From Blasia pusilla (lineage: Eukaryota): a stretch of DNA of 64,000 nt. Position 1 is the stretch's first letter. Each line of letters opens with the position of its first letter. Of the stretch, positions 16,511-64,000 are shown in pieces. A program made the translations under genes and the position numbers. The stretch spans positions 35,774,001 to 35,838,000 of the forward strand of contig CM114271.1 of assembly GCA_050084515.1 (NCBI GenBank), read 5' to 3'. The notes beneath the pieces are model-generated. The model saw only the letters and a program-made list of their open reading frames with translations, ran no database searches and was not told the DNA's origin.

Positions 16511-16529
16511 AGAGGGTTAGTGGTATGTT

Positions 16530-33701: not shown

Positions 33702-33989
33702 ACGGCCCTCCCGCACCCGAACCTTTCCTGTTCAAACACCGGCTATTGTCAAGGGAGGTATGAGGGCCAAAGGGGGGTACATGGTGGGATCAAGTATGAG
33801 TAGGGAAAGCTTGGGTGTGGGATGCATGTGCTTGGGCCCTGTTGCGCGCATACACATCGCTACAGAACATACATTATTGTTACCGAACACACACACAGAA
33901 ACACACACGATCCCATGCTAACTCATGACATCCAAACAACGAGACAAGAAGTACCAAAATATCTCTAAAATATGATCCAATCTCTCTTA

Positions 33990-39248: not shown

Positions 39249-40042
39249 TCTTACAACAACATAATTCTCACATATGTGCACTCTCACATATCTCTCTCAA
39301 TGTCAAACCAAACCCACTCTCCTAATGAGAGGCTTGGGTTACACACACAAGGCAAGCAAGACCATAGCTCCGTCACCTTATGCCAAGATGTTCAACAAAG
39401 AGAGAATGAGCTCTCAAGCTCTCTCTCTCCTTGAGGTATATCCCTCCCCTCTCCCAAACTCTCTCCATGGTAACCTATGCTCCCAAGTCACCTCCTTGGC
39501 TCTTGACCTAATGTAGGAGGTAAAGGGCCACTTTATAAAAATAGAAAGTCGATCATATACTCAAAATTGTACTTATCTAAAATAGTAAGTTTCTCAATAT
39601 GGCTCCAAATGAGCCGAAACGAAAGGAAAACCTATTCTCTCAAGTTTCCTGGAGCTTCAGCAGTCATCCTCGACCTACTGATCCTGTCCTCCACTACTCA
39701 CAAAGTTGCTCTACTAGATGTCACCGATCTATCCTAAAAGACGTGATAGTTGTGGTGTGCATACACATCGCTACACGACATATATACATCGCTATCATCG
39801 ATCACACACACAAACACATACGATACCATGCTAACTCATTGCATCCAAACAACTATCACCCTCCTAGATGGTGGTTAGGTCCTTCTAACTGCAGATAGCC
39901 ATCTATCCCCACTTACCATGACATATATCTCTCGGACGCTAAGAGCAAGAAGGTCGGATGCTCATGAGGCCCCATCGTTAGTCGCTTTCTTGTCATCCAT
40001 GTCACAAACACAAGTCAGAATGTAGAACTACCTAATCTATGT

Positions 40043-40177
40043 ACATCTGGGACACATCCATCGTCCCTGAGGAACCCTAGTGAGAGGTGGTATAAAACAT
40101 GCCATATGCCATCCTCTCGAACACCCATCACATAGTAGCATAGTGGTTGCACCATGGGCGAAACCACACAACACACA
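40043..40177 (-). pseudogene. PHD finger at the integrase C-terminus (copy 2)
   Basis: Manual translation CVLCGFAHGATTMLLCDGCSRGWHMACFIPPLTRVPQGRWMCPRC gives a complete C4-H-C3 pattern. Confidence 0.93.
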
Positions 40178-40186
40178 CCGCAAGCC

Positions 40187-41331
40187 TCAAGCAACTATTG
40201 CTAAGCTTGGATCAACTGTACCGTCAATCTTTGGAACATGACATGGCGCACAGTTACGTACATGATGCTTCCAAACCATACTATCACGTCCCTCGAATAA
40301 GAGAACACCGGATGGCAAAACCTCACGCACTCTCAAGATGGTGCGCCCTATAGTCACATCCAACGTCGTGGATGCCGTCTGCTGCAAGTAGACATAGTCT
40401 TTTTTATGAAACCTTGGGATATTAGATCGATAACCACCTCCCTGAATAGTCGCATACCTTCACCTATCCCGATGTTGCGCAATCGCCAAGTTCTCAAACG
40501 CCATGGGCATCACTCTCCGAAACAACTTAGCCCTCTGAGAACATGCTCGCATCCATACATCAGGGTCGTCAAGGTTCAATACCTCACCAACATCTCGACA
40601 AATGGACGTAGGTAAATCGGGCTCTCGGCCATAAAACAACAAGAACGGTGAGAAAGACGTTAAGGATGCCTGCCTACTGAATCTGTATTCCATCTCCAAC
40701 CACGGTAATTGAAGGTCCCAATCTCCTAGGTGACCTCTCTGCAAGCCATACTTGCGTAGTCCTCTCTTCACCATGTGCACAACCCGCTCTGGTAGTCCAT
40801 CTCCCCCAGGATGATCTCGCGAAGTAGTGCGGTCGTTGATCAGTGCCAGATCACACAAGGCCTGAAACTTCCCGCGGAACTGTGTACTCTGGTCTGTCAA
40901 CACCTCAACTAGTGCACCGTAATGACTAAGCACTTGATCTAAAAAGGCATACGCTCCTCCCTCACTCGCTTTGTCAAGAAATGCTACCAACTCTATCCAC
41001 TTCGAGAAGTGCTCGACCATCACCAACACATAATGACTATGGCGCTCTGTCAAAGGCAAACGTCCTGCAAAATCCAAATTCCATCCATAACCTAAACCCA
41101 TGATTGGAAGTGGATGCAACTGTGGAGTCAGAGCATTGAACGATGCTCGGACTCGATCACACACCATACATATGGCAACAAACTGATGAACGTCAGTCTG
41201 CATGCCTCGCCACCAATATTGAATCTGGAGCAAGTTGTACGTCTGCTTCACTCCAAAATGAACTAACTCCTCGTGGGCATCACGTACCAAACGTGCTATC
41301 TGCGAAGGATGACGTGCCTCACTGCCTGTGA
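40187..41331 (-). pseudogene. gypsy-type DDE integrase (copy 2)
   Basis: H-x4-H...CMVC zinc motif, LDFAG, VLTDQ, DGLPER. Confidence 0.93.
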
Positions 41332-41985
41332 TCAACAGCCCGCATCCAATATAGAACCCACCAATAAATCGGAGGGACGCTCCACTCTTGCATGAGCCTT
41401 CCGTAAAACCTCATGTGGTACCAAGTTGGTCCACCAAAGATGCGGGCGGTGTGCTCTAGAACCTACACTCGCCGTATCTAACAACACTGCCGGGCCGATC
41501 CATGCGCGTACTTGATGTGCACTCGTCACCACGCGGGACCTTGAATCGCCCAAAATCGGCACATTCTCCAAAATGTATGTTGGAGAAATAGGCTGATGCT
41601 CATGTAAATGTTTGCAAGATCCGCATCATCTCCCAAAACAACTTGGACCGAGAGTCAGCTAATCTGCTACCCCGTCTAGCACTCGATAGGCCCTGACAGG
41701 GCCAACCAGCAATGACCAAGTCTATGGTCCCTACCCGCTCCAAGTCCTACGCCCCCAACAATGAAATGTCCCTCAGTGGGGAACTCTAGTAACCCTAAAT
41801 GGCGGACGCAGAAAACAAGTCGGGAATACGTAGGCGTAACAACGCCACATGGTAAAGTAAAGCGCGCCTTGCAACATCATCAATCTCCACATACAAGTAT
41901 TGTTGCACAGCCACTCCAACCTGCAAAATAGCAGCTAACCCAATGTTAATCCCTCCAAAGAGATCCAACACCCGAATATCCTTCT
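41332..41985 (-). pseudogene. C5 cytosine methyltransferase domain, motifs I-VIII (copy 2; C-terminus deleted)
   Basis: IRVLDLFGGINIGL, YVEIDD, DLVIAGWPCQG (~41690-41722), ENV, LDTASVGSRAHRPHLWWTN. Confidence 0.92.
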
Positions 41986-42439: not shown

Positions 42440-44555
42440 AGTGCTCCACCAACAAAGACGTGGTAGGACTCTGCATCAGTCACTATCGCCTTGGCTGCAC
42501 CACGGACTCATCTATAGGATGTCCCGAGAGAATCCTCACCACGACCTCCTATCGGGTAATATACTGTGTGGTACTTGCTCCACCCAAGGATGTCTGTATC
42601 CAGAATGGACAACGTGCCACATCGGCTCTCGTCAAGCCCAATCTTTTGAATGACGCTTTTCCCAGCATCAGGGGTTGCGCTCCTAAATCCAACAAGACGC
42701 GTTGCGGACTAAAAGCTCTACCTCTTGGACTCACCAACTAGAAGACCTCTCCCCGGTTATCTATTAAAACAACACCAAAATAATCCATGGCACGCTCTAT
42801 CGGGGGTCTAGCGGGCATCTCCGCCATCCTACCAGCCGCAGCCTGCCATGAATCTGACATGGACAGCCCGAGTATTAGCTCCAAGGACATGTCCATCACC
42901 TTCTCTGCAATCACCTGTGAACGTGACGCAGGAACTCCAACTCCAAACTCACATAGCGTACCGGCCAGCTGAAAAACCTCGACGGGCGTACTTCCCAACG
43001 TCATAACATCGAAAGAAAAAAATAAAGGAGCGCGGTACATAACGGTGGCCGCCCCCAACAACGTGCTCGACACATGCCCCTCATGAGCATGAGCAATAGG
43101 AGTTGTCGCACTTGTTTCTCCCATTGCCCTCCGTGCGTGCACACCAATAACATCACCAACTCTCCGGGAACTCTGATCAGGACCCATCAATAGGTTCCTC
43201 ATCACCTCAAACAACGTGAAAGACTGAGGAACCTCAATGCCATAGCGGAAATCTGCTCCTATAGCTGCTGTATCTAAGCAACAATCCCAACCTCACGCCC
43301 AACGTCTCTCTCGACGCGTCTAGGTGGTGGGACTCTACCTCCTCCACGGGAAATTCCAATTCGGGCAACTCCAGTTCCTTGTCTCCCAACGGGACCACCT
43401 GCTCCACGATCTCTAGGCCCACCAGGACCGGCTACTCGCTCTGGTGCCCTCTTTGGCCCTCGGTCCAGACGTAACTCGAGGATGTAAACTGAAATACCTC
43501 ATGCATGTGTGACCATACCTCTCATAAAAGTCACACTGATAACCTCCTGGTGCAGCACCATCTCCTCTACCATGCTCAGGCACACGTCCATGACCCTGAT
43601 GAGTGCAATCGCGTTGATGATGGACTCCACCACATGACCAACAAGTAATCATAGGCGGCTCCTACTGAGCTGCATATGAAGAGGCAGGTCTCTATGGCAC
43701 GGCCTCCCGGTATCCTCTCTGAGCTTGTGGTGCCACAGTCAACCTATCTTGGAGTCCACGTTGTTGCACTAGTGATGCAGACAATCGTGACTGCTCTCAC
43801 CCATAACCCATGGTGGCTACGCTCTCCTCCATCATATTGCACTCAATGTTCTCGGCGGTCCTAAAAAAATCCCTCAAGGTAGGGGAGGTGTTCATAAGAA
43901 GCACTCCCTCCCGCACCCATGTCCGTAGGGTCCGATCCAGCATTGCGTACCCTTACTGGATAGTTTGAACCTCTGTCACCCCCTGAGTGACGTTGATCAA
44001 CCGGCACAAGTGAGTGTAAGCCTCACGCAAACTCTCACTCGGGCGCCTCTGGAAGTTGTGGATGCTCCGCAACTTCTCCATCCGTACCCCCTGGTAGCTC
44101 ACCCTCAACTCAGCGAAGAACTCAACCATGGGGTTGAACTTGGGACGAACCTGACTAGACGGTGCAACTGCTCCAATGCGAGTGACCCCTCCTAAAACAT
44201 CAATAGTGGAAGAGGAAGTAGCCTCTCCTGACTCCTCCTCCTCATCTGGGAATGGCTCTGTCCATGACACATAGTGTGGATCATAGTAGAGTCGCCATGC
44301 CTCAATCTCCTGGGCATATCTGTGGGAGAATTCATGGTAATTGTCCATGGGCATCCCCTCTAAATGCTGGAACATACCATTCCATATTGTAAACGGGTAG
44401 AAATCTCCAGAGTTCCTAGCCTCCTGTGAGTCACACCAACTCCTAAACTTTGCAATGAAGTCGTATAGCTCTATAGTGCCAACAGCACCCGAAAACCTAC
44501 ACGGTCCTCTATCCCGGTCGTCCATCTCGTACGCCCAACTGGTAGGATGACTCAA
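42440..44555 (-). pseudogene. gag and aspartic protease region (copy 2)
   Basis: IELYDFIAKFRSWC; zinc knuckles CWSCGGVHHQRDC and CDFYERYGHTC; RVLLDLGAQPLMLG. Confidence 0.85.
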
Positions 44556-45377
44556 TGTGTACGATGGATCACTAACACACTACTCTAGACACTACCCCTC
44601 GTTTGAAGACGACACAGAAGCAGATTGAGGTGGTCTCTTACGTGGACACCCTTGAAACCTCGCACCCCTCTGGGTAAACCCTCTAGAGCTACTCTCAGGT
44701 CCACAACCTTGCCTCTCAAAATCTCGAAAGAACGCCATGATGGCCCTTGTGCCCCTCTCACACAATCACTCTCAATCTCACAAGTAATCCCTCAATCACT
44801 AAAACTAAACATGCGGCACTCAATCTACACTCTCTCACTAAGTCGTGTGGTATACGGCAACAAGCAGCGCAATCCGGAAAATCAAGTGATCTATCGTCTC
44901 ATCGACATCCCACACACGTCTATGTCCCCTAAACCCATACATCATCGATGCTCTTAGCATCAACACGAAACCCAATATCCCAAATAACTTCCCAATATCC
45001 AGAAATCCCTCACACGTGCAAGATAAGGGACTACAATGGATAACCTCACAATAATGTCAATGTCGCTCCTCGATAACTGCAAATCTCGACCCCAACTCGA
45101 TCGTGAAGATAACTCCTCCAATTAGCAAGTCGTACTCCTCTCGTATTGACGTTGCTCAAAACTCCTCAATGTGCGGTGCAGGTTCAGCGGTCCGGTACGG
45201 CACTGGTGGCACAAAACGGCTACAAACGACATGATACTCGGGAATGGTGTGCGGCACTCGGCAGCATATCCTCCTCAATCAGAAATTCACACGCTCTGCT
45301 CCTTAGTAAAGGAGCGGCTCCCCGATCCGAACGGTGCGGTGAGGCCACAAGCGGCACGGTGCGGCGATCGGCGGCGC

Positions 45378-46654: not shown

Positions 46655-46944
46655 ACACGTTGCGGCTACGGGCGTCACGGCACGGCACTCGATCGTCATC
46701 AAGCGGCTACCAATCACAACATAGCAACATGAAATGAAAACTCAAACATCATAACCCGAGGTCACGTGCCATCATTGGTTGATGACGAAACTCCAATGAC
46801 GGTGGTGGCCAAACCAAAGTACGTGATGGCGGCGCAAGTCAGAGAATCAGCGGTTGTCGTGGAAGACCCTCCACTCCGTAATGGCGGAAATGGCAACCAA
46901 GGGTGGACAACGACTGAACGCGGCGCTAGGCGGTGGACGATGGA

Positions 46945-47050
46945 AGGTGGACCGTTGACGATGACGGTTGACCGTTGATGATGACGGTTGACCGTTGATG
47001 ATGACGGTTGACCGTTGATGATGATGGTTGACCATTGACGATGATGGTGA
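46945..47050. repeat. 21-bp tandem repeat (GATGACGGTTGACCGTTGATG-like), ~4-5 units, in the element leader
   Basis: Direct reading; fewer, more degenerate units at ~3270-3340. Confidence 0.85.
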
Positions 47051-48217
47051 TGATTGAACGTCGACGGTTGAAGATGACTATGACGACGATCGCCTAGCAA
47101 TGGCAATTTTGCAAGATTGATCATAACTTTTTGTTCGTAACTTTACATTGCACATTGTTTGTTGCAAAGCGTGCACAGCTTCACGATCTACAACGGCATC
47201 AAAAAATATTTTGAATCAAATATTCTAGTAAAAACAAACGGGGACTATCGTAAAGCCCAATGTTTCTCCGACATAAAATTCGGCAACGCTTCCGCGCTGA
47301 TTTCTCCCAACAAAAATGTAAAACCTGTGAGAACACAAATTAGTAAGCTACATGGTGCTCCCAAGAGCACCAGCATGGAAAAATCCGCCCCCATACTCAA
47401 TTCCTATCGAAAATTGGGCAACGCTTCCGCGTGCCACTCTCCCGTACAAAAAATCAGCAAAGCAAAGCAGCAAACTTGCAAGGCTCTTGCTCCAGTGAGC
47501 ACTCCCATGAGCCATGAAGCGGGGAACACGGTCCCCCAACCTGCACCAAACATCGAGCAACCAACGAGCTCTCCATGAAGCTCTCTCACTCACTTATTCT
47601 CTCGTTGTAAAATATGATCCAATCTCTCTCACAACACCATAGTTCTCACATGTGTGCACTCTCACATATCTCTCTCATTGTCAAACCAAACCCACTCTCC
47701 TAATGAGAGGTTTGGGTTACACACACAAGGTAAGCAAGGCCATAGCTCCGTCGCCTCATGCCAAGATGTTCAACAAAGAGAGAATGAGCTCTCAAACTCT
47801 CTCTCCTTGAGGTATACCCCTCCCCTCTCCCAAGCTCTCTCCATGGTAACCTATGCTCCCAAGTTACCTCCTTGGCTCTTGACTTGATGTAGGAGGTCAA
47901 GGGCCACTTACCAAAAATAGAAAGTCGATCATATACTCAAAATGGTACTTATCTAAAATAGTAAGTTCCTCAATATGGCTCCAAACGAACCGAAACGAAA
48001 GGGAAAGCGTGCTCTCTCAGGTTTCTCGAGGCTTCGGTGGGTCATCTCCGACCTACTGAGCTTGTCCTCCACTACTCACAAAGGCGCTCTACTAGATCTC
48101 ACCGATCTATCCTAAAAGACATGACAGCCCACATGAAGATGTCCGTTGCTAGGACGGACATTATTCTACCAACATAGACTTTTTCCATGTGTAACCTTGC
48201 CAATATATCGTTGACAT

Positions 48218-48400
48218 CAAGGTTGCAGGGAAACGCACATGTCCACAAAGATGTTACTCAAGTACCCACGGCCCGCATCCCAGCCCGTTGAGCCCATAGC
48301 GAGCACCCGGGCTGGCCGAGCTTGCACCGGTTTTGTGGCCCTCGTGCAATCCACGACCAACCCGGGAAGGGCCTCCGTTAGGGGAGCAAGCCTGTCCGAA
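48218..48400. mobile_element. Truncated hAT-type MITE (left end only)
   Basis: CAAGGTTGCAGGGAAACGCACATGTCC at 48218; no right TIR seen; right boundary approximate. Confidence 0.55.
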
Positions 48401-51400
48401 TTCTCCACCGGCAAGAATTGAAGGTTCCTGTACAAAACTTCGAAACACACGTAAATATTACGGAAAAAGCGGTCCAGTCAGTCTCCGCAGCCTTCAACCG
48501 GGAAAAAGAAGTCCTTGGAAACTCTCCTAAACCGTGATCCGGCCAACGTTGACATGCCACTAGTCCACAGTCCAGTGCACTCACTGGTAGTGACAAGTCA
48601 GCGTTTCCTCCGAAGAAAGTGACGATCGAAATTTGAAACACGGACGTTCCGGACTCGGCACTGTCTCGGCAGACTCCGGAGAACGCATCGAAAGTCGAGT
48701 TCATGATGAAATCTTGAGAAGATTTTGATCATGAGCTGTAATTATTATTCAGACGCAGTGACCACGCGCAAGAAGTACCACACTACTATAGAAGGTACGG
48801 GTTAACAGACTCAGAGCACGACAATCTTGAATCTTCGTCCTCGAATGCACATGGGAACTTGAAGGGAGAGAATCTGCGTCATAGAATGAATGCACTGAAC
48901 CACTGTCAAAGAACTCCGAGAATGAAGACCTACTGCAGCCTATTCTAGACTAGATAGACATTAACCGTTTCTGTTCGTGGCTTTTCCCGCCCTTCCCTTC
49001 CTTCCTGGCCTCTGGAGAATGGAACGAAGAAGTGAAGAATCTGACGATCACGCTGCCTCAGCTGCGAGGATTGAAGATCGCATCATCACAATCATCATCG
49101 TGGATCTACTAAGTAACGAACATTGCAGTTCATGCGAAATGTGACCGATTTGAGTTGTTTCTTCGGAGTACCATAGTCGCGGAAGTCAAATTAAGACCGG
49201 CGAAGACAGATCGGATCGCCATTGAGAACCTTGAGAATGATCTAGAATTGCATACGCACGTCGTCTCTACTTTCTGAGCGTTGAGATGTGGATGGAATTG
49301 ATCGCTGCTGGTTTTCCGTTCATCGTGCCACGTTTTAGACTGTCGAAACCTCACGGGAGTCTTCGGGTTCTCCCGTTGAGTGTGTGATCGCCCGTTTCAT
49401 TTCCCCTTTCCCTCCTTTTCTCGTACGTAGAAATTCAAAGTCAACTTCGACAAATCCATATGTACGAGGACCAAATAATAGTAATATTATATTTTATTTA
49501 TGAAAGAAATTTTATTGATTCAAAACAGACATTTGGAATGGTTTTGATTGTTAAAAGGAATGAAGTTTCGTGTATTGGAGAGTGAGATTTAAATGGATTG
49601 TTAATACGAGGAAATGGGTGCAATGACTTCAAATTTTCTATTTTTTATGTTTTACACTCGTCTTAGTTGTGAGTGTGGTCTCCTTGGTGATGCACGTCTT
49701 GATGCCAATTTCAAGTTTTATTTTTGTGGCAATTTTTAATTCTTAGTGTTTGTACCTATTCCACATTAAAAAAGATCCCCTTTATCCTCTTTTGCATTCG
49801 TGCATATCCACATAACCTTTCATGAATTAGAGATGAATATTTGGAATTGAAATAAGCCTATCTCCCATAGAATAAAGCTTGATATCAATAACTTACCTAT
49901 TCTCTTTGAAATCCAATATGTAGGAGTTGTATGTTTAAAACCATTGGACAATTCAATTCATTTGAGAATTTGAGATATGTTAACTCCACTTGGAAAGTGC
50001 CCAATCAAAGATTTAGATATTCTAAAAACCTCTTCAAGAAGAAGGAATCCCTAATTTAGGTTTCTCATTTTTTATTCTTAGTGTGACTATCCATTATGGT
50101 TTTAAAAAGTCCAACTTGTCCTTACTTCTTTACAAATCCATTCATGTCTCTAAAAACTAGCGATAATTTTGGAGGAAAAATGTGGATTTGAAAGAGATAC
50201 AATTCCCATGAAAGGAAACTCCATACGAAATAAAATGCTTATTATTTTCAAACTCTCTCATTCTTGTAAAAATTATATTTTGAAAAAAAATTGTAACAAT
50301 TGCACGAATTTTAATTTTTAGATATATTTAATAAATAAAACATAATGGTATAAAATATTTCTATCTTCCCATAATAAGTGAATATTTCTAAATTTATAAT
50401 TATTTAAAAAAATTACCCGAGAATATAATTTTGATATTATTATATTATGATATATGGATTTTTATGATATTACCTAAAAATCTTATCTATTGGTAAGAAA
50501 GTGTTGTTACATTGATATGACATCTTGGGATATCTCATTCCTTATAGTAATAATTATGCTAGTTGTAACACTAATAATTTAGTAATTCTTGGGACGTCTA
50601 TTCTAATGAGAGCCCAAAAAAACTCCTACCATACCATAGGAATACTAATTAGTAAATTAATGATAATTATTCATTCTTAAGAGAGGGAGAGAGAGAGAGG
50701 GGCTCATAAAAAAACATTTTTCCTTATCTTGGTCTTCACGCAAGATAATTTTAATTTTTTATTAAATGTTTGTCTTCTAGATAGACTTTGAGAAACATCA
50801 TTCAAGTTTTGGATGATTTCTCTAAACTAACATTCTGTAAAAAATCATGCTTGTCATATCTCACTTCATTTTTAGCTGAGCTTTATTTTCTAATGCATGT
50901 AATAATACATCAACCAAATTTACACATGGGTTGGAATTATATACCCACTTATATGGAGGTTTTTATATTTATGTCAAATCATGTGAAGAGAATGGATTGA
51001 ATACTTCTAACATTAATTTATGAAATAAGATCTCATTGGTGGATTTGGATGAGGGTAATAGAATATTCAACCGAGTCCAAAAACTTGAATCACACCCACT
51101 TGTGAAAATAAAGAAACGTTAATATGTTGATATAACTACTCATTTGAGTTATTTCTATCCTCTTGAAGAAAGAAAGTTCATACTTTATCTATTATGACGA
51201 CCACTACCTTTTCTTGTAAAGCCTTCTCTTTAAATGAGTCTTTATCAACATCATCTTTATTGACCATTTAAACTTCCAAGAATTTTCTTACATTTTCAAC
51301 TTGTAATTTAAATGAAGAACCACATTCCTTTTTAAAAGAAAATATAGATGTAATGGAGGTAGTTCATGAGGTGTTGCACTTGACACATGCTACTTTTATT

Positions 51401-52642
51401 ACATAGGCCATTTTTGGAAACTAGGCTAACTTTTAGCTTTATAAAACTCCAATTTCTTCATGGGCCCCACTACACTATGAAAAGCTTAACAAACAAAGTT
51501 ATGTGGTTTATCTAACTTGCCACTTTCACTACTCCTTTTTAATACATTGTCTCCCAATCTTCATACTATTATGGGCTAAGCTTTCAACTACACCACAAAT
51601 CCTATGCTAATTTGAAATTAGCTTAAGTAATTTGTAAGAGTTGACTTTATTTTGGCTCTATACTTCCTTGCTTTTCCTTAGAGTTATGTGTTAGAACCAC
51701 AAAGGAGTGGGATCATTTATGGTTGGGTACCTAAAACATACTTTGGAATGACATACTTCACTTTTACAAAACGTCTCATATGCCCATGTAGCAAAGAGTA
51801 AGATGAAATCAACTTGTTGGAATCTACTGTCTCTATTCATGGGATAAGCTCTATCCATATTCACTTATGATCATATGGAAACTAGGTTGGGAGGATGTGT
51901 TAGTCCATAAAAGAGTGTTACAAGAATTTTCTCTTTTAGGATGAGATAATTTCAAGAGAAAGATATTGTGGCGAAAGGGGTGCTAATCTAGATTAAAATT
52001 CTTCAAGAAATTGTATTATTGATGGTGATAAGTTTAAATGAAAACTAATAATAATTTTAAAAAAATTTAAAGAATTTTTTATCTTATTAAGCTAGCGGAG
52101 GCCAATTATCATGTGACCAAGATAATAATTTTCTTATTGCATGTGACAGAAAAAAAAATCTTGTTATCCTATTACCTTAAGTCAAGCACAGAGTTATTTT
52201 ATTTGAAATAGAAATGATTTTATAGCATGGGAAACTTCTACAATAAAAGAAAAAAATAGAGACATCACAAGATATATCATAATAGAGGTGACGACAATAG
52301 GGAAGTAAATTTTTGTCACTATAAGTAGTTACATAGTAATTTAAATATCTATTTATATTTCATGACTATTCTTTGTAAAAAAGGTTATTTAAAAAAAAGC
52401 TTTTACAACTAAGTGGGGAAGGTAGATAACTTTAATTGATATGGAAGATAATTTTACAAATTTATTATTTTTAAGTCAAGGAAAAAAATTGGAATTTAGT
52501 TTATTTAAAAAAAATTAATATCTAATTTTATAGCAATCCTTGTAATATTTTGATTTGAGAACAAATGGATCATTAAAAAACTAGAACATTTTCTTTTTTT
52601 CAGTATCAGTTTATCACATCTTAATTAGTTTGGGTGCAACTC

Positions 52643-53784
52643 TGTCATAAGGTGGCAGATGATGTTAACGACATGTCCGTTGCGTTCGGAGTGTCGTTTC
52701 TATCAAATCCCTTTTTTTGTCATTTTTGGCGAGGTGACCCATTGACTGAGTCAATGGTTACCCAATAACATGTGCACGGAGGTTACCATTTGGAGGCTAT
52801 TTTTTGAGGAACAGGCTTTTGGCTCTTCCCAAAGCTATAGGAGAGGGAGAGATGGCTTTCCCAAGCCATCTTTATCATGTTGAGCCTTACGAGCACCTCT
52901 CTTGCTTCTGTGTGTATAGGAACTAGGGTGCTAGTGTCCCGATTCCCTCATAACGGAGGATGGATGAGGCTTGATAAGATGATGTAGATTCGAGAGTGGA
53001 GTTGGCCGTGTGAGCTATTTTTACTCCAATCTTACATAAGAAAGATGCAAGGGGGAAGGGGGGAATTTGTTGTATGTAGGTAGGCAAGTGAGTTGCCTTG
53101 GTGGTGAGCCCTTCAAAGTGATGGTTAGTGTTTGTGTTGTCATTGTATTTTACCACTTGTCAAAGGAGACAGAGAATATGCACCCAATGCAACACTCTTC
53201 ACTCGCATTGATCATTTGGAGCAGAGGATTGCTGCCATGACGATGATGGAACTAGTGATAGGTACACAGTTGAGATAGCTAATTTAGTTCCAACCTCCAC
53301 TTTGTATCTTGATACGGGGAAGGATTATGCGTGTTAGAGGTTTATGAGTAGTGGGGCTCAAATCAAGGTTGTTGCGATGGTGACTCGAGGTGTTGTGAGA
53401 GTGACCGAGCTACATAGAGATGGGGTTGAGATAGTCGCACAAGAGGGCGCTGATGGGCGACATATTAGGGTTCCCGAGTTTTTTACGTTGTCAAAGAAAC
53501 TACAAACATCATCGATGGTGCCTAGACGACCTATAGTGCCCACAAGTAAGGCAGGTGCGTCGACGTCAAGAGGAGTTGGAGAGACGACTCTTAGGCTCGG
53601 GTGGAGCCACTAAGCTAGTGTCAACCACGTTGTTGGAGGTGGCCACGAGGATGAGCCAAGATTTTTTGATTTTGGCTATGGACTTGGCGGCGATGGGAGT
53701 TAGTCCAGCGGAGGTGTTTCGATTGGTTGCCACTCTCTGTGAGCATGGAGAAGTGACTGCCTCTCGTTTGGAGGTGGTAGACCT
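52643..53784 (+). mobile_element. Older DNMT-gypsy family copy, left part (A-like repeat plus gag-end); interrupted by copy 3
   Basis: Starts TGTCATA; A-like sequence to ~53050; reads ...EVFRLVATLCEHGEVTASRLEVVDL at the break. Confidence 0.8.
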
Positions 53785-55377
53785 TGTCACATCTGAGTAG
53801 CCGATAGGCCGAGATCTATCGTGGACAGGGTGTAGGAGCCAACAGACTATCTTGAGTGTAACTTCGTCCCACGGTGTCGGATGAGGTTGAGGATAGGTCC
53901 ATTGTGTTAGGAACGTTGTTTCTGACAACCTTCATGTTGAGGTCTTTCACAGCCGGGTGGCTTGTTGACCAGGTCATCCACCCCTGGTAACCTGTGCGTG
54001 CAGGTTACCAAGGGGAGGGCTATTTTTAGGGGAAGAGCCTTTTGGCTCTTCCCAACCCTATATAAGAGAGGAAGGTGGCTTTCCTAAGCCATCTTTCTCA
54101 TGTTGGGTCGTTGGAGCACCTCTCTTGTATGTGTGTGAGATATGACTAGGATGCTAGCGTCCGGATTCCTTGATAGCGTAGGGCGGACGAGGCTCGATAT
54201 GCCGATGTAAATTGAGGAGTGGAGTTTTAGGCCGGGTGTGCCGTTTTTACTACTCTTTATTTTTACATGAGAAAGATGTTAGGGGGCTGGTGGAAATTCG
54301 TTGTTTGCAGGTAGGCAAGCGAATTGCTTTGGTCGGGAGCCCCTGGAGACGTGTGTGTTGCGGGTGTTGGTCATTTTCCTGTTCGAAAGGCCGTGGGCGG
54401 AAGCGCTGTCCATTTTTCTCAAAGTTTGCTGGTGCACATGGATTGAGGACAGTGGCAGAGTGTAGTACGGAGTGGGATGGCGACTTTATTGTTGAGAGTA
54501 GCGAGAGTGTCAAGAAAGAGCATGAAGGAAAGGTTGTAGAGGCAGAGGCGGCCAGGGTGCAGAGGCGTTTAGGTCACAGAGGTGCGGAGGTGTTTAGGTC
54601 ACATTTAGGTTGGAGAGGCGGCCGGCTGCAGAGTCGCACAGTGTGGGAGGCGCGCATAGGGCTGCGCGCCCCCCACAAAAATAAAGAGTAGTAAAAACCG
54701 AACACCCGGCCTAAAACTCCACTCCTCAATCTACATTGGCATATTGAGCCTCGTCCGCCCTGCGCTATCAAGAAATTCGGACGCTAGCATCCTAGTCCTA
54801 TCTCACACACATATAAGAGAGGTGCTCCAACAGCCCAACATGAGAAAGATGGCTTAGGAAAGCCACCTTCCTCTCTTATATAGGGCTGGGAAGAGCAAAA
54901 AGGCTCTTCTTCTAAAAATAGCCCTCCCCTTGATAACCTGCGCGCACAGGTTACCAGGGGCGGATGGCTTGGTCAACAAGTCACCCGGCTGTGAAAGACC
55001 TCAACATGAAAGTTTTCTGAAACAACATTCCTGACACAATGGACCTATTCTCAACCTCATCCGACACGGTGGGACAAAGTTACATTCAAGATAGTCCGCT
55101 CGCTCCTACGCCCTATCCACGATAGATCTCGGCCTATCGGCTACTCAGATGTGACAGCTGTCGTGCGCATACCTATCGCTACACAACATACATCGCTAGT
55201 CACATCTACACCACACAACACTGATCTTCCTCACACACGGGTCGATCCACACATGTACAAAATCAACTCACACATATACATGGAGATCACACAACCGCCC
55301 CCCTAGCTGGCAGTAGGATCCCCCCAACTCCAAATAGAAAAAATCACATCTCTCTGACATGACCTACTACCCTATAC

Positions 55378-55512
55378 ACATCTCGGACACATCCATCATC
55401 TTGTGGGAACCACATCAAGAGGGGGGGTCAGACATGACATATGCCACCCTCGAGAACAACCATCACATACCAACCTGGTGGCTGCACCCCTCGCAGATCC
55501 GCACAACATACA
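55378..55512 (-). pseudogene. PHD finger at the integrase C-terminus (copy 3)
   Basis: CMLCGSARGAATRLVCDGCSRGWHMSCLTPPLDVVPTR*WMCPRC. Confidence 0.92.
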
Positions 55513-55560
55513 CCTCAAGCCTGCAGGTAACCACTGCCAAGCTCGGATCCACCATCCCAT

Positions 55561-56700
55561 CTACGTTCGGAAGATGACATGGCGCACAATTGCGCATATG
55601 ATCCTTCCAAACCATACCATACTATCCCATCCCTCCAACATGAGGACTCCGGTCGGTAATACCTTGCGCACACGTAGGATCGTGCGCCCTGCAGTGACAT
55701 CTAGCGTCGTGGGTGCCACCTGCTGTAAATACATGTAATCTCCAGGATGAAACCTCCTAATCCTTGGATGATAATCTCCTCCACAAATGGTTGCGTACCT
55801 CAATGTATCTCTATGCTGAGCAATAGCTAAGTTCTCAAAGGCCATAGGCATAACTCTACGAAAAACCTCCGCCCTCTGAGAACATGCTTGTACCCACACA
55901 TCTGGATCATCAAGATCTAACACCTCCACCATGTCACGTTGAATCACTGTAGGTAAATCTGGCTCTCTCCCAATGAGCAAAAAGTACGGTGAAAATGACG
56001 CCAAGGATGCTTGCCGACTAAACAATAACCCATAGCCAACCATGGCAACTGTAGGTCCCACTCCCTCAACTATCCCGTTGCAAGCCATACTTGCGCAATC
56101 CTCTCTTCACCGTCTGTACCACTCTCTCCGCCAACCCATCTGCCTCAAGATGATCTCTGGACGTGGTGTAGTGATCTATCAGTGCCTGATCACACAAGGC
56201 CTGAAACTCTCCCCTGAACTCCGTACCCTGGTCAGTCAACACCTCCGCCGGTGCACCAAAGTGACTAAGCACACGATCTAGAAATTCATAAGTTGTTCCA
56301 TTCCTCGCCTTGTCCGGTAGTGCCACCAACTCTATCCACTTAGAGAAATGCTCCACCATGACCAACTCGTACCTATGATGACGTCCCGTCTATGGCAAAG
56401 GTCCCGCAAAGTCTAAACTCCACCAATAACCTAAACCCATAATAGGCAACGGATGTAACTGCGGAGTGGGAGCATTGAAGGATGCTCGCACTCTCTCACA
56501 TACCATACATTTGGCCACAAACTGTTGTACCCCAGTGTGCATGCCGCGCCACCAATACTGAACCTGGAGTAAGCTGTAAGTACACTTTACTCCAAAATGT
56601 CCCCATTCCTCATGGGCATGTCGCACTACACGTGCTCGCTGGGAAGGATGAGGTACCACTTGTATCCTATCATCTCCCCATACCCGCAAAATGTGAGTCC
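55561..56700 (-). pseudogene. gypsy-type DDE integrase (copy 3)
   Basis: HEEWGH...CMVC, SLDFAGP, VLTDQGTEF, DGLAERVVQTVK. Confidence 0.93.
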
Positions 56701-57049
56701 CCTCCCACCTGAACCTCCTGGCTCTCTGTAGGATCCGATCCCGCTACCTGGCACTCACTATGCTCGCTATGACGCTAGTGCGCAAGAACTCCACAACCTC
56801 CACGTCGTCATGGATATCACGACCACCTGTCGCCTCCTCACTGACCTCCGGATCCAAAGACTCATCATCCAACCCCACCATTGGAGTCATCACCTGTAGC
56901 TGACGTGCCATAGTCAACCAACAAAGATAGGCATATGCATGCCAACCGGGCACCATCTCCTCATCACTCTCTCCATCGAGCTCCTGTGTCGTCTCTCTGA
57001 CTCGGACATGGGTTATGACTCAACTCATCCGCATCCTGGTTCAGCCAAC

Positions 57050-58400
57050 CTGGCCTATCAACCACCTCAAACCCATACTCTTGTAGTAATAGAGCCCACC
57101 TGCCAAGCTTTCCCGTAAGCTTGGCGGACTCCATCAACCACCTCTACGGCTGATGATCAGTGGTAAGTGTGAAAGGGTTGCTGAATAAATAGCACCTGAA
57201 ATGTGCCATGGCCCACACTGCAGCCAAGCACTCTCCCTCGTAGGAGCTGTACTTCGCCTCTGCAATGTTGTTCAATTGGCTCGCGTAAGCCACAATGAAC
57301 TCCCTCTCCCCGTCATCCCTCTGAGTAAGCATTGTTCCTAGATCCAACATGCTCCAATCTATATGTAACTAGAATGGGCGACCCCTAACCGGTCTCTATA
57401 AAATGGGTGAGGACGTCAACCTGTCCTTGAGATCCTGAAATGCTCGCTCCTCATCATCTCCCCACAACCAAACCTGATCAAGTCTCGTCAATAAGGTCAA
57501 AGACTTTGAGATCGCACTAAAACCCTTGACAGACCATCGATAGAAGTTCGCCAGTCCAAGAAATGCTCAAAATCGACTCATATCTGTAGGGCGTGGAAAT
57601 TGTGCAATAGCCTCTACCTTCGTCTGCTGAACGCCTAATCCACTCGGGTATATGGTGTGTCCCAAGTACTCAATCTACTCCTGAAATAATCTGCACTTGC
57701 CTGGATATAACTTCAGTCCATGTAACTGCAATCTCCAAAACACCTCCTCCAGGTGTCGCTCATGCTCCTCAACCGTGGAACTAAAGATAAGAATATCATC
57801 TATGTAACATTGTACAAACTCCAAGCCAGCCAGAATCCTATCCATCACTCTCTGAAACTCTGCAGGCGTGTTCTTCAACCCAAATGGTAAGAACCGCCAC
57901 TGATACAAGCAATCTCTCCCGAACCGATCTATCCCCCAGAATGTTGTCTTCCTCCTTGTCCTCCAACTTGATAGGAAGCTCATGATAGCCAACACAAAGA
58001 TCTAAAGTACTGAAGATCTTTGCATGCCCTACCGCATCAAAGATCTCCTCAGGAGTAGGCATGGCATACCGATCTGACCTCGTCTGTCGGTTGATAGGAC
58101 GTTAATCTCCACACATCCGCCTATCCGTCCAATTGTCATACATATCCTTCTTTGCCGGCATGACTCGGGCAGATGCATACTCCCCATGTGATAACTCCAC
58201 AAGTCCTGACTCCTGCTCTGAATTAAGGCTCGCTCCATATCCGAATACGTGTAGGGTCGACGAAAGATCGACGTATCACTAGCCAACTCAATCCGTATCC
58301 CAGGATCCTTCAGCGTATCCAAGTCTCTCATATTGAAGGCAAAAAAATTGACATGCCCTCTCAGAAACCTATGAACTCGCCGTCGCTCTCCTCCTATCAA
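57050..58400 (-). pseudogene. Reverse transcriptase and RNase H (copy 3)
   Basis: MPTPEEIFD..FSTLDL..GYH, LPFGLKN, YIDD (~57800), VAYAS..YSSYEGECLA, TDHQP. Confidence 0.95.
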
Positions 58401-58759
58401 CTTGAGACCTATCATAGGCTCCCAAGTCTCCATCGTGACCTCACTTGATGAGGACGCAACCTCCAGATTTGGTTGCTATGTAGCAACCCTAGCCACCTCC
58501 GCAATAGCCACCTCCGCAATAGCCACTCCACGGTGACCTCCTAGACCATGCTCCACATCCAAAAAATGAACATGTGTTACTCTAGCCGCCTTTGCACTCT
58601 CTGCTCAAACGACGTCCTAGGAAGTCCATGGGTGCCTATCTCTCCTCGTCTCGCCCCCAGCTAATGCCTGTACAGACCCTGTAGGCAATGGTCTAACTTG
58701 TGGACGTAACAGCATGGATGACACTCGTATCCGTCTCTGCTCAGCCATACCTAGGCTGA

Positions 58760-59700
58760 CTATCCATGTGAGACAGTTGAGGACCATCACCTGCCCCAAC
58801 ACCTCTCTTCGGGATGTCTAAGTCATCCCTGGAACCGCCGTAGTAGCGGTAGCAAACCCCATGGCGCGCTCGCGCTCATCTGCTGTAGGCTCCTCCAATG
58901 CTCCGGTCACCTCATCCCAAATCATGCCTGGCCCTCCTTGACGAAAGGCATGGGATGCTGGGAAGCTCACCAACATAGGTAAGGCTGCCCTCAACTCCCC
59001 CACCCTATTGGCCATGGCCAACGGTGGTCTATCATCCTGTGTCACCACCTGAGATTGTCGTCCTGAGCCCCAAATTGCATCCACTATGAGATGTGGTGCT
59101 CTCTGGACTCCATCGTATGCTCGACTCAGTACCTCTGATGGTATCCGGTTTGTCCACCACAGTCGTGGACGATGGGCACGTGATCCAACTCTCGACGCAT
59201 CTAGCAACACAGCAAGTCCCAACCAGGACCTCACCTGATGCACACTCGTCATCACACGTGCATGAGTGTCTCCCAACAACGGCACGTTCTCCAAAATGTA
59301 CGTTGGAGAACATGTCTGACTCTCCTGCAAGTGTCGTACTACTCGCAACATCTCCCAAAACATCCCTGACCTCGGATCGTGCAATCCAAATCCTCGGCCA
59401 GTTGATGAATGACCCTGACATGGCCATCCAGCAATCACCAAATGAATGGTGCCAACTCTATCCAGATCCTACCCCCCAAAGAGATGTCGGCGGGTAGTGT
59501 ATGCTGATATCCCCGTATTGTGGATACCGGCAACAACTCAGGAGACCTCTGGACCAATCTCGTCACGTGACATATTGATACTCGCCACACGGTCTCATCT
59601 ATCTCCACATAATGGTACTTATGCACCCGTATGCCCGCCTGCAATACTACAGCCAATCCGGTGCTAATCCCTCCGAAGAGATCTAACACCCTAACACCCT
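58760..59700 (-). pseudogene. DNMT3-like C5 cytosine methyltransferase domain, motifs I-X (copy 3)
   Basis: VRVLDLFGGISTGL (I), YVEIDE (II), IAGWPCQGHS (IV), ILENV (VI), LDASRVGSRAHRPRLWWTN (VIII), ERERAMGF (IX), VLGQVM (X). One frameshift near 59440-59480 and a stop at 58818. Confidence 0.95.
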
Positions 59701-60059
59701 CCTCTGGGCACTCCCACACAACGGGTGTCGTATCTAGTGGGGTCAACGTCTCCACTCCAAGAGCCCGATTGCCACGTGACTCTCGCTGCTCCGAGATAAA
59801 GGCATGACTCCACGCCTGCCTCACGAGGTCTTCGACACTCCTTTGTAGCTCTCAAGTCGTACCCCACAATGGTGAAGAGGTCTCGCCAACATGGGAAGAG
59901 ACATCCGCCATGGCCTGTCTCTCTGTGGGACTATCCGCTACTGGGACATCCTCCGTATGTGCATTCCCCTCCAACAACTCTCTTGGCCAGCTAACACTAC
60001 CTGTGAAAGCTGCCAACGTGGTCATAGACTCGCCTCGTGATCGACCACCTTATCCCGCA

Positions 60060-62461
60060 AACTACACGGGTAATTGACTCATCCGCCCGTCACCTGACCG
60101 CCACCCTGGCCGATAAGCAATGATCTCCTCCCAAAAGACAAGGATGAATCCTTGGGGATATAACACTGAACTCCCCACAAACACATCGTACGACTCAGCT
60201 GGTGTCGTAATCGCATGTGTGCGCACCATAGCACTATCCGTTGCATGCTCTGGCTGGACTCTAATAACTATCTCTTGCCGAGTCATATATTGCGTGGGTG
60301 ACACACCCCCAATCGAGGTCTGTATATGGAAGACAAGGCTCAATGTCGGCCTTCCGTAACCTCAACGCTAAACACACCGCCTTCCCTAACATCAAGGGTT
60401 ACGCTCCCGAATCAAGTAGGACGCGCTGCGTGTGTTATACCGTCCCCGTCGGACTAACCAAGCAAAATACTCTAGCTCGGTTATCCAGTAGCACTATCCA
60501 AGTGTCACCACTGCTCGCTCTATGGCCGGTCGAGCTAGCATATCTACCAACTTTGCCGCCGCCGCATGCCATGACTATGTGGGGAACGTCCCAAGCACCG
60601 GCTTTGAGGGCAAGTTCACCACCTCCTCAACTACCTATGAACAAGAAACCATCACCTCTCCACGCTCACACAACGTGGCGGCCAGCCGGAACACCTCAGC
60701 TGGTCCAACTCCCAAGGTCGCCAACTCTATGGCGGAGAATAGTGGAGTCTGACTCACTCTGGTGGCCACCTCCAACACTATGGTCGATATTGACTCCACT
60801 CGAGCCGGCATAGGAGTTGTCACTCCAACTCCTCGTGATGTCGACGCACCTGCTAGAGCTATAGGCACCGCTGGTTGTCGAGGCACCATCGATGGTGTGT
60901 GTAGTGCCTCCAACAATGAGAATGACTGTTGAACCCTGGCCTGCCGCCCATCAGTCCCCTCTAGTGGGTCAATCTCAACTCCACCTCTCGATGGCTCGGT
61001 GCCTCTCGCAGAACTTTGAGTCACCACTGTAGCTGCCTCAACCTAGGCTGCACTACACATAAACCCCATACTGGAGAGATCCTCACCCCGGTCAAGGTAA
61101 GAGGTAGAAGCTGGAGCCACACTAGCTGCTCGCGGCTCCATGCCTTCCCTGAGCTCTATCATCGTCATGGCAGCAATCCTCTGCTCCAACTCATCGATGC
61201 GTGAGAGAAGTGTCGGCTCTAGTTCTCCTACTCCATCTCCTTTGGCTGGTGGTGGTCCTCTACCACCACGTCCAGGAAGAACTCCCCAACCTCCTCCAAG
61301 ACGACCGCCCCCAGGCCCTTGGCCTACCTCTTGGTGTGCCTCTCGGTGAAGGTCAAAACACCTATCCCTACTGTGACCATATCTATGGCAATAGTCACAC
61401 TGGTGTTGTGGTGGGGCCATCCTCTGTGGCTCCTTAGCAATCGGAGGTGCTCGTGGTCCTCTCCCATGCTGTGGGGAGTCTCTCTACCTATGGGCCCCTC
61501 CACACGTCCAACAAGACCACATCGGTCCCTGCTGGGCAACATATGTAGGTACGGGTCGTTGCCTCATAGGCTCACGGTACCCGCCCTGCTCTCTGGGCAC
61601 ACCGGCCCGCTCCCGTGGTACTGGTGCTCGCTGTGGCACCTGTGGGGTCATCAGCGCTCATGGACCCGTCGACTCTCAAGAAAATCCTGCGGTCACTACC
61701 TGCTCCTCACTCATGTTGAGCTCAATACCCTCAGACAACTCGAAGACCACCTTCAATGTGGGCTCTGCTGTGTGAATCAGCACCGCATCCCGAACTCTCC
61801 TCCGTAGTTCTCAATCCAGAACCCTGTACCAATACTGGATTGACTGCGCCTCAGTCACTCCATACGTAGCAATGATCAGCCTCCTCATATGTGTGAATGC
61901 CTCTCTCAGACTCTCACCCGATTGTCGCTAAAAATCTCGTAGACTCTTCAGCTTGTCGATGCGTACGCCTTGGTAGCTCTTCCCCAACTTTCGGAAGAAC
62001 TGCACTGTGGGGCTGAAGCTAAGTGGCCCTCTACCACCAGAGATCTCTGCCACATCCCCTGTCTCACTGCCCTCCTCTCCATCTAGTCTCCGGGCTGATG
62101 GTGTGGGTCTCTCTCCTCTCACAATCCCATCATATGCCTCGCGACCACTACTAGACACATATCTTGGAGCCCAATACATCCTCCAAGCATCGATCTCTAT
62201 TGAATATAGTGATCAAAACTCCATGTAGTCATCCATCGGAGGACCCTCCAAGTGCTGGAACAACCCTTGCCATGCCATGAAAGGGTTGAACCGTGTCGGG
62301 GTCCGTATCTCCTGGAAATCGCACCACGTGTCGAACTCCTGGATAAAATCATCTAAGTCCATGATGCCCATTTGCACCCAAGAAACGACGCATGCCCCGA
62401 TGGCCCATGTCGTCCATCTCCTGCCAAGTACTACTATCTCTGTCTGCGATCTTGTCACCAT
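60060..62461 (-). pseudogene. gag and protease region (copy 3)
   Basis: MDLDDFIQEFDTWC; zinc knuckle CDYCHRYGHSRDRC; RVLLDSGA*PLMLG ~60385-60430. Confidence 0.85.
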
Positions 62462-63717
62462 ACCCAGTGTCTAGTGATGATGATCTTGTCACGGATGGAT
62501 GTCGAGGTAGCTTTTTTTTGGTAACCCCTCGGTATCTCACTCCACTCTATGTCACACCACCACCACTACTCGCACTACCCCGTTCTTCCGAACCTTGGAA
62601 GAATGCCGTGATGACAAACCGTGTCTCACCCGCTCAAGCACTCAGACTCACCGAGAGTCTCCCACACTCCTCACTAGCTCACCTATGCTAACATCAATCC
62701 TGTGATGACATACCCGGCCTCACGCACACTCAACACTCGGGCTCACCATGAGCCTCCCAACTGCCTCACCTAACCTAGCGACACTCTCTCGGGTCATACA
62801 CGCGACCCCTACTCGGCAACCACCGTATATCCACCAACATGCTACACATGAAAAGAATCTACACTCATCACCATCACTGCACCCATCTAGCACCAACTAC
62901 TACCCGATACCCAGCACTCTCAATCACACACGACAAGTGCACAAAAGGGACTCGAATGGGTAACCTGATAACGCCCTCCAACCTACTGCACCGTCAACAT
63001 CCACTCCTCCACATGATATGACAACCTCCGCAACACCACACTCTCCTCAACCAACATGTGAAACCTCCCGTCAGTGTAGGTTCGTGTGTCCCCATCACAA
63101 CCCTCGCAATTCCCAGTCGGTGAAGAACTAATGAGTCGTCCTCCAACCTACTCGTAACGACCGACAAAGTCCTATCGCAAATCCCATCCACGCTCGCGAG
63201 ACACTAAGTCCTGCAAAACTCTCCACTGCGTAACCGAATTCAACCACGTCGGACCCCAACCATGTCTTCCCTTATGACTACGTCCGACTTTACCATGTCA
63301 CTCCCGTCAATTGTGGTACCATGTCGGACTGCCCTACCACGTTCAGCCCCTGCAACTCCACCACATCCACTCGGCCCTGACCACATCCACATGTGCCATA
63401 CCACGTCCATCACGGTGCCCTATGCACCTCCTTAAATGCGAAAAATGGGGGAGGAGGAACCTGGCCCACGGCCCTATGCAGGCCTCCCTTAGTACGGGAA
63501 AGGGGGGCGTGCGGCCCTATGCGTGCCTCCCACATTGCGGGGAGGGGGGGGGGGATTTAGGGTTTAGGTGCGCGCATGTGTTGTGTGATCTCCATGTATA
63601 TGTATGAGTTGATTTTTGTACATGTGTGGATCGACCCGTGTGTGGGGAAGATCGGTGTTGTATGGTGTAGATGTGACCAGCGATGTATGTTGTGTAGCAA
63701 TAGGTATGCGCACGACA

Positions 63718-64000
63718 GCCTGCCCTCGGAGCATGTACGCGGTATGTCCCCCACTCGATCATGGCAAGTTTTGGCGGCGAAGTTGATGGATATGCCATCT
63801 TGACCAACCATAGAGTGATCCATGATGACACCAGATATAGTATTGCTGGACAATTGAGTTGGAGTCTTTTGCTTGGTTAGTTCAATAGGTACGTTGTACC
63901 ATCCAAAGTGCGTTCTACGGGTGCGCAACCCTTGATGTTAGGAAAGGTGGTGTGTTTGGTGTTTCGGACATGAAATATTGAGCCTTGTCCCTTTCAGATA
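63718..64000 (+). mobile_element. Right continuation of the older copy interrupted at 53784
   Basis: Rejoining gives GTG GTA GAC CTG CCC TCG GAG (VVDLPSE), followed by family sequence SWQVLAAKLMDMP. Confidence 0.85.

Follow-up and report, generated by a model that had tools for sequence, protein, structure and literature searches.

The segment 55378-55512 on the minus strand encodes a C-terminal PHD finger, the last domain of a Ty3/gypsy Pol integrase. It lies in copy B, one of the two diverged copies (A and B) of the element that we have compared in the window, i.e., the whole analysed stretch of 64,000 nucleotides. Both copies are dead relics. The element appears to be a gypsy element of the KnitGypsy-Dnmt3 kind, and by analogy with known retroelements we consider it fairly probable that the finger tethers the integrase to the histone H3 tail.

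When 55378-55512 is translated on the minus strand, the pattern C-x2-C-x11-C-x2-C-x4-H-x2-C-x14-C-x2-C appears, with a single in-frame stop at codon 39 (55396-55398). The corresponding segment of copy A, 40043-40177, gives the identical C4HC3 pattern with no stop. We have scanned 135 minus-strand stop-to-stop ORFs from 38-64 kb with Pfam, where the gathering cut-off of PF00628 is 24 bits. The copy A ORF 40040-40186 covers the profile completely (positions 1-47 of 47) at 46.5 bits, and the copy B ORF 55399-55560 covers positions 1-33 of 47 at 31.5 bits (E-values in Table 1). The latter match ends at profile position 33 because the in-frame stop lies inside the finger. An earlier note on this DNA, made from the letters alone, had proposed a C4-H-C3 PHD after the integrase in both subfamilies, intact at 40043-40177, and had named PF00628 as the check. 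Both statements hold, as the two copies score above the cut-off and the copy A finger is complete.

The reading frame gives further information. A single reading frame, interrupted by two TGA codons (40460-62 and 40187-89), runs in copy A through the integrase ORF 40463-41410 (Pfam Integrase_H2C2, E 9.9e-15, and rve, E 2.2e-6), the ORF 40190-40459 and the PHD ORF. That is, the PHD is in frame with the integrase, a point on which the earlier note had staked its reading. Pol of copy A terminates at the TAG 40037-39, one codon past the last Cys of the PHD, and the natural Pol stop of copy B (55372-55374) is also one codon past this Cys. Several frame breaks have to be crossed between the integrase core and the finger of copy B; in the DNA alignment, this part of copy B has, relative to copy A, two gaps of 1 nt, one insertion of 5 nt and another of 1 nt. 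Overall, the two copies are 74% identical in DNA across 1289 columns. Since copies so diverged retain all eight zinc ligands, and since 280 of the 290 PHD-matching relatives that were retrieved also have the C4HC3 pattern, the finger pattern is not a chance one.

Table 1 Features of copies A and B of the element (positions in the window)
Feature	Position	Strand	Details
PHD finger of copy B	55378..55512	minus	45 codons; PF00628 E 1.8e-7, 31.5 bits
Integrase of copy B	55513..56917	minus	Integrase_H2C2 2.2e-15; rve 1.6e-11; frame shifts and stops
Parts of the copy B integrase	HHCC ORF 56393-56743; catalytic core ORF 56069-56389; C-terminal region 55564-56031	minus	
Reverse transcriptase (RT) and RNase H of copy B	56979..58179	minus	RVT_1 2.7e-19; RT_RNaseH 2.5e-19
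C5 DNA methyltransferase (DNMT) module of copy B, upstream of RT	58200..59468	minus	PF00145 E 2.7e-9; matches P0173 1380-1816
Protease-like region of copy B	59816..60497	minus	similarity to P0173 982-1190
PHD finger of copy A	40043..40177	minus	stop-free; PF00628 E 3.7e-12, 46.5 bits
Integrase of copy A	40190..41410	minus	Pfam; fold matches prototype foamy virus (PFV) and Ty3 integrases
DNMT N-terminal half of copy A	41338..41971	minus	PF00145 E 2e-9 at 41603-41746
Protease-like region of copy A	42498..42845	minus	tblastn with P0173
Repeat A1, 5' terminal repeat of copy A	47627..48127	minus	90% identical to 39249-39749
Repeat B1 of copy A, adjacent to A2 on its upstream side	39751..39853	minus	80% identical to 33840-33940
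Repeat A2 of copy A	39249..39749	minus	90% identical to A1
Repeat B2 of copy A	33840..33940	minus	Copia insertion 33990-39249 between A2 and B2

The modules of both copies have been placed by tblastn of the window with P0173, an intact metagenome relative of 2811 residues, together with Pfam support (Table 1). With this query, the integrase of copy B is matched at 56069-56917 and its C-terminal region together with the PHD at 55378-56031, while the integrase-PHD of copy A is matched at 40043-41308. Copy B has the Ty3/gypsy Pol order of RT, RNase H and integrase, and its integrase is of the HHCC and D,D,E type. Its protease-like region gives no Pfam match; a gypsy protein of Klebsormidium also aligns, with its protease region, to the same part of P0173 (982-1190). 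In the DNMT of copy B, motif IV (P-C-Q) and the E-N-V motif are still legible. By DNA match, 41408-42027 of copy A corresponds to 59131-59745 of copy B, and as the DNMT half of copy A adjoins the integrase directly, about 2.5 kb (the rest of the DNMT, RT and RNase H) has been deleted there. An order of RT, RNase H, DNMT and integrase for copy A was rejected, since its DNMT piece is the N-terminal half, aligning to that of copy B, and has no RT upstream.

Two identical LTRs are not present in copy A, which has split direct repeats A1...B1-A2-B2 instead. These are seen in copy A only, copy B being cut by the window end and disrupted at 55151. The order of the family is therefore a protease-like region, a Dnmt3-like DNMT, RT, RNase H, integrase and PHD, with split direct repeats. 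That the element encodes a C5 DNA methyltransferase and has split repeats, as previously noticed, is borne out by the PF00145 matches and by this layout. A third partial copy of the family lies at 1-4445. Compared with solved structures, the broken DNMT ORF of the window itself gives marginal matches to M.HaeIII/HhaI (E 0.006). The intact DNMT module of P0173 is nearest to the catalytic domains of DNMT3A/DNMT3B (E 1.3e-7), followed by M.HaeIII (2e-6) and plant DRM (7e-6), an affinity in agreement with the published Dnmt3 affiliation.

We have further used reads labelled as the same species, from one DNA run and three stranded RNA runs, counting those of at least 85% likeness over 39900-59800. 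In both orientations together, the DNA depth is ~1940-2170 in the integrase-PHD bins of copy A and ~1350 in the PHD bin of copy B, compared with 0-0.84 in six unique bins at 48.5-52.5 kb. This difference indicates that the family has on the order of thousands of copies. In the PHD bin of copy A, the RNA depth is 107-160 where the first mate lies on the plus strand and 1.5-6.5 in the opposite orientation, which means minus-strand, i.e., sense, transcripts if the libraries are stranded in the usual way. A likeness of at least 99% is reached by only 6, 8 and 1 RNA reads in the three runs, so that the transcripts are those of other copies, not demonstrably of this one. At position 40460, within the first premature stop of copy A, another letter is found in 1783 of 1926 DNA reads and in 116 of 118, 135 of 136 and 84 of 84 RNA reads; as the reads mostly differ here, this stop is private to a minority of copies. 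Overall, the family is abundant and transcribed.

The same reads also tell how the copies decayed. At 882 places in 39900-59800, at least 60% of the DNA reads differ from the window, with 294 T>C and 263 A>G differences compared with 32 C>T and 38 G>A. From this excess, the copies in the window have decayed mainly via C-to-T and G-to-A changes relative to the family majority. Such decay is as expected from the deamination of methylated cytosines, and the element itself encodes a cytosine methyltransferase.

To what extent the finger was conserved can be read from the divergence between copies A and B. By the Nei-Gojobori method, dN/dS is 0.117 for the integrase N-terminal part and core (266 codons), 0.104 for the integrase C-terminal region (105 codons) and 0.153 for the PHD (44 codons), all of which are rough values because dS is saturated (~1.3). 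Even so, they show that the finger was under purifying selection like the integrase during the divergence of the subfamilies. In addition, the eight zinc ligands, the HHCC of the integrase and two catalytic Asp are all invariant in a 52-sequence alignment. This alignment also shows a conserved short motif about 20 residues ahead of the finger, at residues 387-392 of P0001 (the integrase-PHD of copy A read through, with X at stops), which correspond to about 40235-40252 on the minus strand of the window. Here C390 is invariant, and A388, P389, H391 and L392 are conserved in at least 90%.

An AlphaFold model of 458 residues built from the 52-sequence alignment has a mean pLDDT of 81.4, with 88-93 in the finger; a single-sequence AlphaFold run on the 49-residue finger gave a poor model (pLDDT 52.8). 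In the former, a five-stranded domain at residues 339-389 is followed by a linker of 20 residues and then by the finger. Foldseek matched the first ~400 residues of the model to the PFV and Ty3 integrases, and since the five-stranded domain precedes the finger, the finger comes after a complete three-domain integrase. This is the position at which chromoviruses carry a chromodomain, just as the earlier note had placed it. For the whole model of 458 residues, Foldseek returned integrase matches only, and the homology of the finger to PHD domains rests on its sequence.

We have searched for relatives with P0001 as the query. Proteins of 803-2290 residues gave 152 matches, and among the 120 of these that were listed, 111 have PF00628 together with integrase domains, 17 have PF00145 and 15 have both. 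Against 1.84 billion cluster representatives (50% identity), 35,093 proteins were found at E <= 1e-3. The nearest 150 of them were rescanned with the finger of the window and with two DNMT modules from relatives, by which the PHD was detected in 141, a DNMT module in 75 and both in 71. That is, 70 of the 141 PHD-bearing representatives are without a DNMT module, and many of these 70 are truncated proteins. Among the named relatives, Coleochaete scutata shows 64% identity and Klebsormidium nitens 39% and 49% in the integrase region, and proteins of Volvox, Tetrabaena, Chlamydomonas eustigma and Hariotina have homology over integrase and PHD at 35-46% identity. Within a large clade of the green lineage, DNMT and PHD travel together. 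Two named proteins of K. nitens were recovered, one having a PHD with no DNMT detected, and the other (P0108) being truncated before the PHD and having no DNMT. A search with the DNMT-bearing N-terminal part of P0011 returned 4 proteins, none of them from Klebsormidium.

Two architectures have been observed among these relatives. The one of the window type runs DNMT, RT, RNase H, integrase and PHD, with the finger 2-13 residues from the protein end; the 11 closest relatives (P0002-P0012) and P0173 have such a terminal finger with tails of this length, as in the window. In the commoner architecture, the order is RT, RNase H, DNMT, integrase and PHD, followed by 175-490 further residues, and this order is found in 90 of the 100 relatives having both RT and DNMT. 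Overall, more than 100 residues follow the finger in 185 of the 290 PHD-bearing relatives, and in P0077 and P0109, both of the commoner architecture, a chromodomain comes after the PHD. As individual examples, the DNMT stands before RT in P0173 and P0011, and between RNase H and integrase in P0035, P0042, P0062, P0091 and others; in the latter position it is sometimes followed by a G-patch. The DNMT modules of the two architectures are homologous (30% identity, E 1e-33), so the module has either moved within Pol or been captured twice. In a FastTree tree of 269 rows, calculated from integrase-only columns with local support values and no bootstraps, the clade of the window has a local support of 97-98. 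It consists mostly of terminal-PHD proteins and includes all six of the six proteins labelled as having the DNMT before RT and a terminal PHD.

A published element with much of this architecture is KnitGypsy-Dnmt3 of Klebsormidium nitens, for which a Dnmt3-related DNMT within the polyprotein of a gypsy-type Pol and DIRS-like repeats of the form A-coding-B-A-B have been described (de Mendoza 2018, PMC5890265). As far as the main text of that paper and one supplement go, the window element resembles it in the repeats of copy A (A1...B1-A2-(Copia)-B2) and in the DNMT of P0173, which is nearest to DNMT3A/B. Judged by this published description, the window element appears to be of the KnitGypsy-Dnmt3 kind. 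The word 'PHD' occurs 0 times in the main text and in one supplement of PMC5890265, and figure 4c or the other supplements may show the finger. The hosts are different, KnitGypsy-Dnmt3 being from a charophyte alga and the window from an apparent land plant, and the nearest named Klebsormidium proteins reach 39% and 49% in the integrase region.

PHD-bearing gypsy elements of chlorophytes have a precedent in REM1, which was reportedly described by Perez-Alegre in 2005. According to the consulted parts of the work of Craig et al., the PHD is a common accessory domain of Chlamydomonas transposons (PMC8557442, PMC9940879), and for Gypsy-7a_cRei, in which a PHD is drawn, the order in the legend places it between RH and INT (Craig 2022, figure 6). 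Like the window element, the chlorophyte elements belong to the green lineage and have a PHD finger as an accessory domain of a gypsy Pol. Relatives of the chlorophyte type have 175-490 residues after the finger, sometimes with a chromodomain, and their DNMT stands between RNase H and integrase, whereas in the clade of the window the finger ends the protein and the DNMT is ahead of RT.

Chromoviruses carry a chromodomain at the C-terminus of the integrase, as Gao and colleagues reportedly described in 2008. They resemble the window element in having a small histone-tail reader behind the integrase C-terminal domain, although in the window this reader is a predicted one, and it is a PHD zinc finger but not a chromodomain. 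The window element is not a member of the chromoviruses, and PF00385 (chromodomain) has no match in any window ORF scanned. EpiLTRs, another group of LTR retrotransposons, combine DAM, a DNMT4-like DNMT and a chromodomain in Cymbomonas and Euglena according to the accessible part of a preprint (10.64898/2026.05.21.726589). With these the window element shares, so far as that part of the preprint goes, a DNA methyltransferase and a chromatin reader in one Pol; it differs in having a Dnmt3-like DNMT and a PHD, with no DAM detected. In the same accessible part, the preprint refers to streptophyte Gypsy-DNMT3 and names no PHD for it. According to a published opinion paper, land plants have no methylase-encoding transposons.

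The earlier note had regarded the combination of PHD, DNMT and split repeats as the notable part. Our literature search found no text on the pairing of a DNMT with an integrase-PHD, nor on a DNMT-bearing retrotransposon in a liverwort. The view is weakened by the published KnitGypsy-Dnmt3 architecture (DNMT, gypsy Pol and split repeats) and by the presence of both modules in 71 of the 150 nearest representatives.

What the finger may read has been approached through solved PHD structures. The window finger matched 99 of them, and the best 60 include CHD4, KDM5B PHD1, Lid, KDM5A PHD1, KAT6A, ATXR5, PHF12 and DPF3, and further PHF21A, BAZ2A/B, AIRE and UHRF1, with E from 7e-16 to 1e-8. A family profile of 19 fingers matched 118 solved PHDs and gave the same set (KAT6A/B included) with E down to 7e-24. 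KDM5B PHD1 (2mny), KDM5A PHD1 (7klo), CHD4 (6ryr), ATXR5 (5vab), PHF21A (2puy) and AIRE (2kft) align to the window finger over all 45 residues, with E of about 1e-13 to 1e-16. Most of the best-matching solved PHDs are, we assume, readers of the N-terminal H3 tail that recognize unmodified K4 or R2. No H3K4me3 reader of the ING, BPTF or TAF3 type is among the best 60 of the 99 matches to the window finger or of the 118 to the profile.

Two sequence features bear on this comparison. Readers with an aromatic cage have a Trp two residues before the His ligand; in 91% of 186 distinct 45-residue family fingers, the residue there is Gly. A distant clade has an acidic loop between the first and second Cys pairs, as in the KDM5B alignment, whereas in the window copies and the relatives closest to them this loop is neutral or basic; at loop positions 8-10, an acidic residue is found in 39-46% of the family fingers. 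Overall, the finger appears to be nearest to solved PHDs of the H3K4me0-reader subclass, without an aromatic cage, and such binding is predicted for it. Because the loop is neutral or basic in the clade of the window, recognition of unmodified K4 is least certain there. In this respect the window clade differs from fingers of the KDM5 type, which belong to host chromatin proteins and have an acidic loop, while its own finger is on an integrase and its loop is not acidic.

Judged by analogy, the PHD most likely serves to tether the integrase to chromatin. After cleavage of Pol, the PHD would presumably remain on the integrase behind the SH3-like C-terminal domain, and would dock the pre-integration complex on the N-terminal tail of H3, most likely where K4 is without methylation. 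Insertion of new copies would thereby be biased to silent or promoter-free chromatin, away from active promoters; that is, the element could steer its integration by histone state. The principle of tethering would be that of the chromovirus chromodomain, with another reader, and the co-encoded DNMT is taken as a separate module of the polyprotein. Since P0077 and P0109 have a chromodomain after the PHD, the PHD is not simply a replacement of the chromodomain, and may do something else.

The PHD might instead serve the DNMT in the manner of an ADD domain, reading unmethylated H3K4 and directing or licensing methylation of the new copy or its surroundings, either in the uncleaved polyprotein or in a processing product of DNMT, integrase and PHD. 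In animal DNMT3A/3B, the catalytic domain is paired with an ADD that reads H3K4me0, and it is to DNMT3A/3B catalytic domains that the DNMT of P0173 is most similar (E 1.3e-7). The joint presence of DNMT and PHD in 71 of the 150 nearest representatives, and the position of the DNMT directly ahead of integrase-PHD in the commoner architecture (90 of 100), would also fit such a service. Nevertheless, half of the PHD-bearing representatives (70 of 141, many of them truncated proteins) are without a DNMT, the window architecture puts the DNMT upstream of RT and ~1300 residues away from the PHD, and the finger always adjoins the integrase C-terminal domain. We therefore regard this role as unlikely; it is more plausible for the architecture with the DNMT before integrase-PHD than for that of the window itself.

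PHD fingers are functionally diverse, and this one might read H3K4me3, or bind a non-histone partner or nucleic acid, with promoter insertion, nuclear import or particle assembly as the outcome. The loop that is acidic in K4me0 readers but basic or neutral in the clade of the window would be in line with this, and so would the family copies found within ~5 kb of an intact host gene, the N-myristoyltransferase at 9186-10955. As for H3K4me3 itself, the best 60 solved matches of each search (out of 99 for the window finger and 118 for the profile) include no cage reader, and 91% of the family fingers have Gly at the usual position of the cage Trp. We consider this group of roles quite improbable, somewhat more so than a service to the DNMT. 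That the finger is foreign to the element, as a Cys/His pattern arisen by chance or an exon captured from the host, could be suspected from the broken copies and from finger ORFs of only 49 and 54 codons, but it is rejected as next to impossible by the same frame and position in two copies of 74% identity, by one ORF with the integrase in more than 100 intact relatives and by the dN/dS of 0.15.

With tethering of the integrase kept as the preferred role, the place of these results can be stated. In the parts of the literature consulted, DNMT-bearing gypsy elements were known already from one charophyte alga and PHD fingers of retrotransposons from Chlamydomonas. What is added is the presence of the clade, with many copies and ongoing sense transcription, in a probable liverwort, and the co-occurrence of PHD and DNMT in about half of the nearest relatives. 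The advance is incremental, because its functional part is an inference and the architecture is visible in public domain annotations. How mobile DNA negotiates with silencing by the host can be seen from transposons equipped with chromatin tools. This family offers a natural system for asking whether integration may be directed by a PHD, as it is by chromodomains, and whether a transposon-borne Dnmt3 may act on the copies of its own element. The widest reading would be a gypsy lineage with both halves of the DNMT3 logic of animals in one polyprotein, combining a Dnmt3-like catalytic domain with an H3K4me0-reading PHD on the integrase, choosing silent chromatin and methylating its own copies, with a DNMT that moved within Pol and with thousands of transcribed copies in a liverwort; we hold it tentatively, as possible but rather doubtful when taken as a whole.

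Several other features of the window have been observed. The N-myristoyltransferase gene is an intronless and uninterrupted frame of 590 codons at 9186-10955 on the plus strand (NMT 1.7e-76; NMT_C 1.2e-75), with the liverworts Calypogeia fissa (83%) and Riccia fluitans (75%) as best named matches, and it lies ~5 kb from family fragments on both sides. From this one gene, the host is taken to be a land plant and probably a liverwort. A Copia-type element at 33990-39249 on the plus strand, with gag, Pol_BBD and gag_pre-integrase matches, interrupts copy A at its A2/B2 junction; its LTRs of 303-309 bp are at 33990-34292 and 38941-39249 and are 91% identical. Copy A also contains an insertion of 1281 bp at 45377-46657. 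Neither the partial copy 1-4445 nor other copies of the family, in which DNA reads join 45376 to 46658, have this insertion, and a second copy of it, 89% identical, lies at 32429-33703. As the RNA over this insertion is opposite in orientation to the host element, it is a separate transcribed repeat of the plus strand.

Just downstream of the Pol stop of copy B, we have found two inverted repeat pairs, 53785-54264/54677-55156 (92.5%) and 55157-55295/63580-63719 (95%). Numerous reads connect 48120 with 55151 or, on opposite strands, 54264 with 55295. From these joins, copy B seems to be interrupted at 55151, where other copies run into the A repeat. In addition, 16527-18899 on the plus strand is occupied by an oppositely oriented fragment of the copy B subfamily; it is ~71% identical to 59593-61270, and pieces of it match 63581-64000.
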